In this document: piece by piece, positions 2,849-64,000 of the stretch
How the letters are laid out: the number at the start of each line of letters is the position of its first letter
Position numbering within the stretch: the first letter of the stretch is position 1
Source: Desulfobacteraceae bacterium
Lineage (GTDB): Bacteria > Desulfobacterota > Desulfobacteria > Desulfobacterales > UBA5852
Assembly (NCBI GenBank): GCA_014237395.1
Contig: JABZFP010000041.1
Coordinates: 273,742 to 337,741, forward strand
DNA: 64,000 bases
Direction of reading: 5' to 3'
Program-made: the position numbers and the translations under genes
Notes under the pieces: model-generated
Seen by the model: only the letters and a program-made list of their open reading frames with translations
Told to the model about the DNA's origin: nothing
Database searches by the model: none

Positions 2849-3463
2849 TCAGGCCGCCGGATCGGCCAGACAGCCGATTGCACGAAAATGGATCCCGCAA
2901 AAAATCATGATGGCGGCGATGGCGCCCAGGCCATCGGCCAGTATATCTTTCTGGGCATCCCAGATATCCCCCTGTGATCCCAAGACGGCGGCACCGGCTG
3001 TCGGGTCGGCGGAAACGGCATAGCGCCATTCAAAAATTTCATAAACGCCGGCCACGGCCAGAATAAAACAAATCGGAAACATGATCAGCACAAAACGGGA
3101 TGCCACGAGCCGCTTGCGCAATAGGAGTTCGGCCAGGGGATAGGCATAAAACCCCACAGTGAAATGCGCCATGCGGTCATAATGATTACGCGAAAAGCCG
3201 AAGAAATCGGTCACCCAACCAAACGGCACCCGCTCGAAAGTGAAATGCCCGCCGATGGTGTGGAGAACAATCAGGCACGCCATCATCAGGTAGGCGGTGT
3301 TGGAAAAGGTGAACCACCGCTTGCTGAATACCAGGGCGGCCACGATGAGCATGATCGGAAGGTTTTCCGCGAACCAAACGGCCCGGTCATACGGGTGGAT
3401 CGCCAGCAGGGTAAACAATACCAGGTAGAAGACCAGAAGCAGGTGTGGAAATCGTTGCGTCAT
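2849..3463 (-). CDS. DUF2238 / YjdF-family inner membrane protein.
   Basis: Multi-TM protein. LAIHPYDR..WFAENLP...HTIGGHFTFERVPFG...RNHYDRMAHF resembles the YjdF family. ATG at 3463. Confidence 0.7.
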   Translation of the reverse strand: MTQRFPHLLLVFYLVLFTLLAIHPYDRAVWFAENLPIMLIVAALVFSKRWFTFSNTAYLMMACLIVLHTIGGHFTFERVPFGWVTDFFGFSRNHYDRMAHFTVGFYAYPLAELLLRKRLVASRFVLIMFPICFILAVAGVYEIFEWRYAVSADPTAGAAVLGSQGDIWDAQKDILADGLGAIAAIMIFCGIHFRAIGCLADPAA

Positions 3464-61649: not shown

Positions 61650-63659
61650 TCAGATCGCCATTCCCGCTTTGAAGCCGCTGTGCATCGCCTCGAATGCCGT
61701 TGCCACCTGATCGGCATCGCCGGCCGTGGTGCAGGGAATGCCAAGCCGCTCTAAAGATTCCGAAAGCGGATGATGGGATTGGGATCCAACGCCCAACACC
61801 ACGGTATCCGCCGGGATGTCCTGCCGGCCCCCGTCCGCGGTTTCCACGGTAACTCCCTGCGGGGTAATTTCCAGCACCCGGGTAGCGGTCAAAGTTTGCA
61901 CATTAGTGCGTTGCAGGTCTTGGAGCAGGGTCCAGCGGGTGGTTTTTCCCAGGCCCTGCCCGATACGATCGATCATTTCGACCACCACCACCTCTTTGGT
62001 GCCGTTGACGGCCAAAGCATAAAGCTCGTCCACGGGTTCCGCTTTATTGACCATCAGAAATTTAAGTGTTTCCCCGGACAGGGTGCCTTTTTCAGCCAGA
62101 AACAGGGCGGTTTCAACCCCGACGGCGCCGCCCCCGACGATAACGCACCGTCGCCCCGTCCGAACCCGGTTGCACAAAACATCCCAGGCCTGGACCACAT
62201 GGGCGCCTTCGATGCCCGGGATGGGAGGCGTAATGGGCCGTGCCCCGGTGGCCACAATGACGTGGTCGGGCGGGTTGGCTTCCAGCAATGCCTCATCCAC
62301 TACCATGTTCAGATGGACCTCCACAGGGCTAAGGGCCACCTGTATGGCCAGATCCCGGGCCAGCGTTGCGAATTCATTGCGGCCTGGCGGGGCCGCCGCC
62401 AGATAGAGCTGCCCGCCGAGTTCTGCGGAGGCTTCGTAGAGATGAACGCTGTGACCCCGTTCGGCGGCGGTCAGGGCCGCGCGCATGCCGGCTGCACCGC
62501 CGCCCACCACCATGATGCGCTTGGGGGTGTCCGTCTTCCTTATGGCGGTGCATTCGGCCTCATGGCCAGCCTTGGGGTTGCACAGGCATTCCACACTCTT
62601 GAGTTTGAACAGGTTGTCAAAGCAGCCCTGGGCACAGGCCACACAATGGACGATTTCCTTTTCGCGGTTGAGGCGGGTCTTTTCAGGCAGGTAGGGGTCG
62701 GCAATGAGGCTGCGTCCCATGGCCACCATGTCGCACATGTCGTCCAGGATCAGTTCCCGGGCGGTCGCGGGATCATTGACGCGATGGCCGTAGATGACGG
62801 GGATGGAGACCTGTTTTTTGATGGCACGGGCCAGGTAGGCAAAGGCACCCCGCGGGACCGCCGTCGTAATCTGGGGCACCCGGGCCTCGTGCCACCCCAC
62901 GTTGATGCTCAAAGCGTCCACGTGTCCTTCTTCCTGCAAGGCGCGGGCATAGGTTTGCAGTTCTCTACGATCCTGCCCGTCCACCATGAAATCGTTGCCG
63001 TTCATCCGGACGATCACCGGAAAGTCTTGTCCCACTTTACGTCGAATGGCCTGCATGACCTCCAGGCCGAACCGCATACGGTTCGGCAGATCACCGCCAT
63101 AGTCATCCTCCCGCTGGTTGGTCAGGGGCGATAAAAATTCGCTGATCAGGTAGCCGGTACCGCTGAGAATTTCAACGGCGTCGAATCCGGCGGCCTGAAC
63201 ACGGCCGGCCGCCTGGGCAAAAGCGTCGACAATGGTATGGATTTCGTCGATGGTAAGGGCATGCGGGGTCTCTTTGGTCATGCGTGAGGCGATGGCCGAG
63301 GGCGCCACAGGCTGCTGCCCGTTCAGGAAAAAGGAGAAATTATAACGTCCGGCGTGGTTGAGCTGGGCGGCGGCACAGGCACCGTTTTCTTTGATGGCAT
63401 TGGCAAGACGGGTCAGGCCGGGAATGAATTCGTCCCTGTGCGCCCCAATGTTGGTCGTGTTGCCGGAAAGGTCGTCGACGGTCGCATAGCCGACACAGAT
63501 GAGGCCGGCGCCGCCGCGGGCTCGTTCGGCATAAAAGTTTATCAGAGGGTCGGTCACCTCGAAATCCACGGCCATGCCCATGTGCATGGCGGGCATATAA
63601 ATTCTGTTTTTAACCTTCAGCTGATTGATAGCGATCGGGTCAAAGATGGGATCCTTCAT
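61650..63659 (-). CDS. Old-Yellow-Enzyme-type NADH:flavin oxidoreductase fused to an FAD/NAD(P)-binding domain (2,4-dienoyl-CoA reductase / enoate reductase-like).
   Basis: OYE TIM barrel (QLNHAGR). 4Fe-4S motif CVACAQGC...C. Rossmann motifs VVGGGAAGM and IVGGGAVG. Confidence 0.85.
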   Translation of the reverse strand: MKDPIFDPIAINQLKVKNRIYMPAMHMGMAVDFEVTDPLINFYAERARGGAGLICVGYATVDDLSGNTTNIGAHRDEFIPGLTRLANAIKENGACAAAQLNHAGRYNFSFFLNGQQPVAPSAIASRMTKETPHALTIDEIHTIVDAFAQAAGRVQAAGFDAVEILSGTGYLISEFLSPLTNQREDDYGGDLPNRMRFGLEVMQAIRRKVGQDFPVIVRMNGNDFMVDGQDRRELQTYARALQEEGHVDALSINVGWHEARVPQITTAVPRGAFAYLARAIKKQVSIPVIYGHRVNDPATARELILDDMCDMVAMGRSLIADPYLPEKTRLNREKEIVHCVACAQGCFDNLFKLKSVECLCNPKAGHEAECTAIRKTDTPKRIMVVGGGAAGMRAALTAAERGHSVHLYEASAELGGQLYLAAAPPGRNEFATLARDLAIQVALSPVEVHLNMVVDEALLEANPPDHVIVATGARPITPPIPGIEGAHVVQAWDVLCNRVRTGRRCVIVGGGAVGVETALFLAEKGTLSGETLKFLMVNKAEPVDELYALAVNGTKEVVVVEMIDRIGQGLGKTTRWTLLQDLQRTNVQTLTATRVLEITPQGVTVETADGGRQDIPADTVVLGVGSQSHHPLSESLERLGIPCTTAGDADQVATAFEAMHSGFKAGMAI

Positions 63660-63724
63660 CGATTCCTCCCCTTGGGTTTTTGCGATGGCCCCGTCGCGCC
63701 GCGGTGGCGCGTTTCACGGCAACG

Positions 63725-63746
63725 AACTTAAGCATATGCTTAAGTT
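63725..63746. repeat. 22-bp perfect palindrome; candidate operator upstream of the flavoenzyme gene.
   Basis: AACTTAAGCATATGCTTAAGTT, lying 66 nt upstream of the start codon at 63659. Confidence 0.9.
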
Positions 63747-63850
63747 GCTGAAACCGCAACCTTTATATGGTTCAAGGGGGGGCGTTGTGGTTTGGGCTTC
63801 CATGCCTCAGGGCAACGTGGTATCGATGGCGCGTTGGCCTATACCGCCCC

Positions 63851-63885
63851 AAAAAAAACGGTTATTCGACATGCGAATAACCGTT
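63851..63885 (-). terminator. Rho-independent terminator, minus strand only.
   Basis: Minus strand reads AACGGUUAUUCG-caugu-CGAAUAACCGUU followed by a U-run (8 T in total). Confidence 0.8.
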
Positions 63886-63924
63886 AAGGAGGAAAACTTA
63901 TACTGAAGGTTAGGTTAGGTTGGT
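63851..63924 (-). ncRNA. Candidate sigma-54-dependent small RNA or attenuated leader of about 74 nt.
   Basis: The predicted +1 is near 63924, 12 nt after the -12 C. Transcript: ACCAACCUAACCUAACCUUCAGUAUAAGUUUUCCUCCUU + terminator hairpin + U-run. No ORF. Confidence 0.4.
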
Positions 63925-63934
63925 ATTAGGGATA

Positions 63935-63950
63935 AGCAAACGGTATGCCA
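63935..63950 (-). promoter_or_regulatory. Sigma-54 (-24/-12) promoter.
   Basis: Minus strand reads TGGCATACCGTTTGCT, a near-consensus match to TGGCAC-N5-TTGCW. An AT-rich tract lies upstream. Confidence 0.55.
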
Positions 63951-64000
63951 GTTTTCTAGTAATTTTTATGGATTGATTTATTTACAATAAATTCAGGTGT

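Follow-up and report, generated by a model that had tools for sequence, protein, structure and literature searches.

A small RNA (sRNA) of ~74 nt, encoded close to the right-hand edge of the window, probably acts in trans to repress an outer-membrane porin, and its predicted transcription would be commanded by a histidine kinase through an NtrC-type regulator and sigma-54. The window is the whole stretch of 64,000 nucleotides that has been analysed (G000:C28:273742-337741), and belongs to an assembly of 5.86 Mb with 56% G+C and a completeness of 98.3%.

Promoter, predicted transcript and conservation of the sRNA gene

The unit consists of the following features:

63935 to 63950, minus strand: sigma-54 (-24/-12) promoter TGGCATACCGTTTGCT, read directly and conserved in homologues
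~63851 to 63924, minus strand: predicted sRNA of 74 nt, its +1 derived from the fixed spacing to the sigma-54 promoter, its 3' end from the U-run
63907 to 63921, minus strand: 5' module (AACCU)x3, the first seed, with its complement UUAGGUUAGGUU in the porin leader
63881 to 63897, minus strand: anti-Shine-Dalgarno (anti-SD) block GUUUUCCUCCUUAACGG, the second seed, with a 13-nt complement in the porin SD region
63857 to 63885, minus strand: terminator hairpin with a 12-bp stem and a 5-nt loop, from terminator scan and fold
63851 to 63858, minus strand: U8 run closing the transcript, read from the sequence, with a U-rich tail in all homologues

A sigma-54 promoter is characterised by a GG at -24 that is separated by exactly 10 nt from a GC at -12 (TGGCAC-N5-TTGCW), and the element at 63950-63935 (TGGCAT-N5-TTGCT) shows exactly this GG-N10-GC spacing. 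ACCAACCUAACCUAACCUUCAGUAUAAGUUUUCCUCCUUAACGG begins 12 nt past the -12 C, with the predicted +1 at A63924, and the terminator stem at 63885-63857 reads AACGGUUAUUCG/CAUGU/CGAAUAACCGUU, its foot being formed by the final 5 nt of the anti-SD block. Folding of the 78-nt stretch 63925-63848 has returned the terminator hairpin only and left the 5' 40 nt unpaired (z = -3.2), and no ORF of at least 30 aa has been found on the minus strand inside the sRNA. All parts named in the preliminary description, i.e., a near-consensus -24/-12 promoter, a start, a 12-bp terminator with a U-run and an ORF-less RNA, are hence present on the minus strand between 63950 and 63851. The unit of promoter, RNA and terminator occurs once in the genome. 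The strict promoter pattern has 52 matches in the genome versus ~10 expected from base composition, and a lone match is by itself unremarkable and no more than chance, so that the case for the gene rests on conservation. A small ORF on the opposite strand (MKKLLG* in the canonical form of the element) has been considered and rejected, since its start codon is absent here and in locus L063 and its lengths vary; the minus strand of the gene is fixed by the promoter and the U-run as well.

BLAST and an exact-pattern scan have recovered the element in nine of 12 congeners and in one sister genus, the Desulfobacterales carriers named there all being uncultured MAGs labelled as Desulfobacterales, Desulfobacteraceae or delta proteobacterium. 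Within the genus alignment, the promoter, CAACCUAACCU, UUCCUCCUUAACGGUUA and the anti-SD core UUCCUCCUUAACGG have been found to be invariant and the stem carries compensatory changes, with both flanks fully diverged. The 44 aligned full-length homologues all keep the promoter-RNA-terminator unit at fixed spacing between diverging flanks, with TGGCA-N6-TTGC unchanged in 43 of them. A covariance model built from the sequences of the genus and the sister genus matches 14 of the 17 genomes of the GTDB family and 90 of the 151 sampled genomes of the order (65 of 109 genera), and has given no match in 146 genomes elsewhere in the phylum, a result which doubles as a specificity control for the model. 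The order-wide consensus runs from TGGCAAG-N4-TTGCA over ~12 nt to cAACCUAAUAAUUUUUUCAUCUGUUCUCCUCCUUAACGG, a variable stem-loop, CCGUU and a U-run. A single AACCUAAUAAUU is present in most of the order, and the (AACCU)3 form is a derived variant of the window's genus.

Conservation of the promoter-terminator pair, the lack of which the preliminary description had named among its refutations, extends to the structure of the RNA. Among 49 aligned hits, 11 of the 12 stem pairs of the terminator change on both sides in a compensatory manner and 98.5% of the cells are paired, values which none of 500 shuffles has reached and which compare with 9-53% paired in slid controls, the alignment having been fitted to the covariance model and thus favouring the structure somewhat. 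Two copies of the sRNA are present in several genomes, at times in tandem, and the genes often lie less than 200 bp from contig ends (G033 C53:38, G095 C304:118, G091 C51:52, G048 C1206:61). From this location and the tandem copies it follows that assemblies may break there, and that counts of absence in MAGs understate the family. No match to an Rfam 15 covariance model, those of Qrr, GlmY/GlmZ, CrcZ, MicF and Pxr included, has been obtained for window positions 62000-64000 (cmscan, E<=10), and a literature search has found no description of such a family. Judged by its conservation, the flagged unit is a real sRNA gene with a predicted transcript, and the family it represents is an uncatalogued one, order-wide in Desulfobacterales, of a known functional kind.

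The porin messenger as predicted target

The two seeds of the sRNA, both contained in its unpaired part, have partners in the messenger of a single gene of the same genome:

C28:505843-504533: predicted target, DESULF_POR1-like porin gene, 436 aa

In the canonical form of the sRNA, the unpaired region mirrors a whole translation-initiation region, i.e., an SD, 7 nt and AUG AAA AAA UUA... The longest perfect complement to the anti-SD block in the genome, 13 nt in length (CGUUAAGGAGGAA), is located 7 nt before the start of the porin gene. For AACCUAACCUAA of the sRNA, the complementary 12-mer UUAGGUUAGGUU has been found in three copies in the 11.7 Mb of both strands, where 0.7 are expected by chance; one of them stands opposite the sRNA gene, and the porin leader accounts for the other two (C28:505920 and C28:505905), which are 15 nt apart. 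The leader reads ...CAUUAGGUUAGGUUAUUUUAGGUUAGGUUAUUUGG, followed by a hairpin and then by ACACGUUAAGGAGGAAUUCUAAUG, and its centroid fold leaves the UUAGGUUAGGUU sites unpaired, with a stable 8-bp hairpin between them and the SD. The encoded protein is secreted, with a signal peptide and a C-terminal ...LSLSF, and aligns over its full length (1-435 of 436 aa versus 1-453 of 454) with NF033939 (NCBIfam, DESULF_POR1 outer membrane homotrimeric porin) at an E-value of 6e-30, the score of 104 bits standing against a curated cut-off of 250; neither Pfam nor PDB has given a sequence match for it. We take DVU0799 to be the founder or reference member of the DESULF_POR1 family. DVU0799 is the characterised major porin of D. 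vulgaris (PMC5686591). The promoter of the porin gene of the window's genome is sigma-70-like (TTGACT-17-TATAAA). All porin leaders also hold, at the same place ~110 nt upstream of the porin start, an SD-like box cGGCGGAAAGGAGGU (L102 ~2905-2925, minus strand), which may serve as an additional site for the sRNA or as a standby site, or may represent a leader ORF.

Searches by energy and by long matches have been less informative. A seed search combined with RNAduplex has found no near-perfect trans target in the own genome, and a 26-mer search with up to 3 mismatches in five other genomes has matched only sRNA genes. When 19,769 SD-bearing starts (-30..+27) were scanned with RNAduplex, the real sRNA did not outperform controls in which the 5' part had been shuffled; the scan missed the upstream leader sites and has shown no single outlier. 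As the energy ranking is uninformative, the target call rests on the rarity of the exact matches and on co-variation, and on these grounds the sRNA very probably silences the main outer-membrane porin by pairing with its leader and ribosome-binding site.

The co-variation has been followed from the own genus into other families. Seven congeners have orthologous porin leaders with 2-6 copies of (A)AGGUUAGGUU, a hairpin and SD matches of 13-17 nt, the SD complements measuring 15-17 nt in part of the comparisons, and the sites have also been matched in the BLAST of the sRNA. Within this genus (g1), AACCUAACCU of the sRNA pairs with AGGUUAGGUU of the leader, and the corresponding partners are AACCUAAUAAUU and AAUUAUUAGGUU in G065 and G160, AACCUGAUAACCUAA and UUAGGUUAUCAGGUU in G091, where (UUAGGUUAUCAGGUUA) is present in 3-4 copies, and ACCUAAUAC and GUAUUAGGU in G067. 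The match in G065 can be drawn further, as CAACCUAAUAAUU of the sRNA corresponds to AAUUAUUAGGUUG of the leader (twice) and SD and start are covered by a contiguous predicted pairing of -36.6 kcal/mol; G160 follows the same pattern. The 11-mer ATTATTAGGTT is confined to the sRNA genes and the porin leader in G065 and G151, and has been located next to porin genes in G160, G025 and G048. Among the 22 genomes in which both partners have been found, the 5' module has a perfect leader complement of 10-16 nt in 15 (shuffle P<0.01 in 14 of these 15), and all 22 show perfect stretches of 9-18 nt in the ribosome-binding region. The (AACCU)x3 and anti-SD seeds, from which the preliminary description had derived a translation-repressing sRNA, are thus both partnered in one porin mRNA and change together with it elsewhere.

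The direction of control may be questioned on account of the tandem sites, whose number per leader exceeds what SD occlusion needs. Control could then be reversed or mutual, the porin leader with its 2-6 tandem sites being a sponge that titrates the sRNA, with the important targets elsewhere, and 64 sRNA-positive genomes without a detected porin of the DESULF_POR1-like family would agree with this. We regard such an arrangement as unlikely, since perfect stretches of 9-18 nt let the sRNA cover the SD of this mRNA as well, together with the start codon where the form is canonical, which is the classic repressing geometry, and since seed search, 26-mer scan and energy scan have yielded no other conserved target. 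A second concern is the generic nature of the anti-SD sequence CCUCCUUA. With 92 genomic sites matching at least 10 nt of the block and the energy scan devoid of a single outlier, the RNA might act as a general anti-SD repressor, or imitate the 3' end of 16S rRNA, and dampen a large number of strong ribosome-binding sites, with the porin as one of many. Such a role is quite improbable, however, as the other seed, (AACCU)3, is partnered only in the porin leader, as seeds of this type co-vary with the leader in other families, for which a general repressor has no need, and as the extended SD matches of 13-17 nt are specific to porin genes. Silencing of the porin by the sRNA is therefore retained as the preferred reading.

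Across the order, the presence of the sRNA (90 of 151 genomes) and of the porin (48 of 151) has not been found to be associated, both being present in 26 genomes versus 28.6 expected. The missing association is probably a detection limit that arises from fast divergence of the porins, gaps in MAGs and strict filters; the sRNA of G091, for instance, has surfaced only under laxer filters. Four genomes have leader repeat arrays and no sRNA detectable by the covariance model and two patterns, and some porin paralogues are devoid of upstream repeats. One of the latter, a second porin paralogue on contig C4 of G005 (L111 ~1380-1400), has a leader without UUAGGUU repeats and with a sigma-54-type promoter CTGGCACGCATACTGCTT, so that in G005 one porin copy may be sigma-54-activated and the other sRNA-repressed.

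Genomic context and the putative activator

In the genus, the sRNA gene is placed between a divergent MFS transporter gene and an OYE/Pyr_redox_2 flavoenzyme gene, which is followed by a convergent gene for a 253-aa protein. The flavoenzyme gene begins 190 nt downstream in the same orientation, and the adjacency is retained in eight of 11 close relatives; the preliminary description had offered, as its alternative, a terminated leader (attenuator) of this flavoenzyme gene. Sigma-54 transcription would in this case continue into the OYE/pyridine-nucleotide-disulphide gene under some condition. We have found this alternative to be very improbable. The congeners G005 and G006 have kept the sRNA with no flavoenzyme gene downstream, and across the order the RNA is located behind a regulator gene and convergent to a TPR gene, or beside unrelated genes. 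Moreover, one hairpin is predicted and no alternative antiterminator fold has been seen, the terminator is strong (12 bp and U8), and the stretch from the sRNA terminator to the start of the flavoenzyme gene contains a separate, perfect 22-bp palindrome of operator-like appearance (window 63725-63746, core CTTAAGCATATGCTTAAG), which suggests that the flavoenzyme gene has its own control. In G002, the downstream gene (L050:1737-3098) encodes, in place of the flavoenzyme, a protein that resembles sigma-54 AAA+ activators and whose N-terminal domain is unrelated.

Upstream of the sRNA gene, two palindromes of the GTTCAAAATTTTGAAC type have been located at window-equivalent positions 64068-64083 and 64146-64161, i.e., 64-161 bp past the window edge, the one at C28:337887 being perfect and the one at C28:337809 having 3 mismatches. 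Activator sites of a sigma-54 promoter are expected 80-250 bp upstream, a range that includes both palindromes (~125 and ~205 bp, span 125-210 bp). The palindrome GGTTCAAAATTTTGAACC upstream of the promoter keeps its TTCAAAA/TTTTGAA core in 37 of 42 loci, mostly in two copies, and three loci (L063, L077, L080) have paired GTTTCCAnnTGGAAAC palindromes in place of GTTCAAAATTTTGAAC, which suggests that the DNA specificity has changed in a sub-lineage of the regulator. The perfect GTTCAAAATTTTGAAC site has its single occurrence in the 5.86-Mb genome at the sRNA gene, and no other pair of such sites adjoins a sigma-54 promoter in this genome; the regulon therefore looks single-target, comparable to LuxO/Qrr and CbrB/CrcZ.

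The regulator itself has been traced through the other families, where at least nine loci show the order histidine kinase, NtrC-type regulator, sRNA (1-2 copies) and convergent TPR_21 gene. The domains are HisKA and HATPase_c in the kinase and Response_reg, Sigma54_activat and HTH_8 in the regulator, and the TPR_21 protein is membrane-anchored. In the window's genome, the orthologous trio has been assigned by orthology on contig C4:

C4:6909-8339: histidine kinase
C4:8336-9709: NtrC-type regulator
C4:9770-10462: TPR protein

The C4 regulator is 66% identical to its orthologue, with 47% for the next-best paralogue, and by this comparison its orthology to the sRNA-adjacent regulator is unambiguous. 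Its GAFTGA motif is intact, rpoN is present in the genome on C19, and in the C4 kinase two transmembrane segments flank a periplasmic domain of ~170 aa. From orthology and shared sites rather than from adjacency, we infer that the C4 regulator is the activator of the sRNA gene. The preliminary description had placed the activator sites and the regulator beyond the window edge; the sites are indeed found there, whereas a neighbouring regulator is not, its gene residing on C4 here and next to the sRNA in the at least nine loci elsewhere.

Some further features of the C4 locus may be recorded. The 60-nt gap between the regulator and TPR genes (L101:9710-9769) corresponds to the ancestral position of the sRNA and contains AUCAUUUUCCUCCUCCGCC, with neither a promoter nor a terminator; it is a possible relic, seemingly of an sRNA copy that has decayed. 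The type IV pilus assembly operon pilMNOPQ (L101:301-6192) is divergent from the kinase/regulator pair. An identity of the pair with PilS/PilR has been considered and rejected, as a pilR-pilA pair is present on C15 and the sRNA shows no complementarity to the start regions of the pilins; with pilR-pilA on C15, the adjacency of pilMNOPQ may be incidental.

Proposed circuit and related systems

In the circuit that we propose, the membrane histidine kinase would sense a signal, presumably by way of its ~170-aa periplasmic domain between two transmembrane segments, and would phosphorylate the NtrC-type regulator (REC, sigma-54 AAA+ with GAFTGA, HTH_8). This regulator would bind the two GTTCAAAATTTTGAAC palindromes, which precede the sRNA gene by ~125 and 205 bp, and open the sigma-54 promoter, and the resulting transcript would end at its intrinsic terminator. 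The unpaired 5' 40 nt would then pair with the porin mRNA (C28:505843-504533), (AACCU)3 with the tandem UUAGGUUAGGUU repeats of the leader and the UUCCUCCUUAACG block with the SD region. A pairing that covers the SD, plus the start codon in the canonical form, implies translational repression, so that the ribosome-binding site would be occluded and porin synthesis lowered, and this without Hfq. Neither an Hfq nor a CsrA gene has been found in the 98.3%-complete genome, and the long GC-containing seeds together with the multiple sites fit a chaperone-independent pairing. That the RNA instead sequesters a protein as CrcZ and RsmZ do, with its CCUAA repeats as sites of an RNA-binding protein, is suggested by a short motif repeated in the single-stranded part of a sigma-54-driven sRNA beside a regulator, which recalls CbrB/CrcZ, but is hardly credible in view of the absent Hfq and CsrA genes, of a repeat that is not conserved as a repeat (one AACCUAAUAAUU in most of the order), and of a motif that changes together with its porin-leader complement, as expected for RNA-RNA pairing.

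Returning to porin repression by RNA pairing, a more tentative extension, which we consider possible and somewhat doubtful, is that the seed and its repeats constitute a co-evolving "address code". The 2-6 tandem sites might recruit several sRNAs, or one in several registers, so that avidity would replace Hfq and give an ultrasensitive shut-off; the array might at the same time buffer (sponge) the sRNA, and the porin mRNA would feed back on the sRNA pool. If true, such a code would provide bacteria that lack Hfq with a design principle of sRNA control that needs no chaperone.

Several sRNAs are known to block the translation of porins and other outer-membrane proteins (OMPs), among them MicF, which acts on ompF in Enterobacteriaceae under EnvZ-OmpR, and the sigma-E-dependent MicA, RybB and VrrA. 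Functionally, MicF/ompF and the sigma-E OMP sRNAs appear to be the closest systems, as they share with the present case an sRNA under the control of a sensor or of stress, with its own promoter and intrinsic terminator, and a pairing (here predicted) at the SD or start of a porin or OMP mRNA. They differ in being driven by sigma-70/OmpR or sigma-E, whereas sigma-54 and a dedicated NtrC-type regulator are proposed here; there is no sequence or Rfam relationship, no Hfq gene has been found in the present genome, and the seed is bipartite here, with 2-6 tandem complements of its first part in the target leader.

The closest regulatory architecture is seemingly that of Qrr/LuxO, GlmY/GlrR and CrcZ/CbrB and of the sigma-54 ncRNAs of D. 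vulgaris. The families of Qrr, GlmY and CrcZ are included in Rfam. Qrr (LuxO), GlmY (GlrR) and CrcZ (CbrB) have the -24/-12 promoter with upstream activator sites and a regulon of seemingly one target in common with our sRNA, which in most genomes lies directly downstream of the regulator gene as crcZ does of cbrB. The differences are the missing Rfam match, the porin as target class, the activator-site motif and the taxon. In D. vulgaris Hildenborough, a member of a related phylum-level lineage, sigma-54 ncRNAs have been described downstream of DVU0679 (Dv_sRNA2) and DVU0653, with their function listed only as "posttranscriptional regulation" and no target reported (Rajeev 2011, PMC3333781; Kazakov 2015, PMC4641369). 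The likeness consists in the gene of a two-component sigma-54 regulator being followed by a sigma-54-driven ncRNA as its (main) target. The activator sites of these ncRNAs, TGTCCGCGATCGCGGACA and CGTGCGATATCGCACG, differ from GTTCAAAATTTTGAAC, and it is by these sites and by the covariance model's lack of matches outside the order that the D. vulgaris ncRNAs have been set apart. A regulon shared with a D. vulgaris activator has been considered and rejected, since nothing similar to GTTCAAAATTTTGAAC is found among the D. vulgaris motifs.

The sulfate reducers among the Desulfobacterales have a key role in the carbon and sulfur cycles of the sea, and to our knowledge almost nothing is known about their post-transcriptional control. 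Here, a complete circuit is predicted from sequence alone, from the periplasm-sensing kinase over the sigma-54 regulator, the DNA site and the sRNA to the porin target. It suggests a way to adjust a major diffusion channel without Hfq, and provides a functional hypothesis for the orphan sigma-54 ncRNAs of Desulfovibrio. With its presence in 90 of the 151 order genomes, the sRNA family is a candidate Rfam family.

Outside the window, a second unit of a sigma-54 promoter and a terminator, ~60 nt in length, has been observed at G000 C30:246183-246270 (plus strand). It reads UCAGAACAUCUUUUCUCCCUCCUCUUA followed by a hairpin, shows the same anti-SD/anti-AUG design, has an orthologue in G005 (L056:1501-1588, minus strand), and may represent a sibling sRNA.
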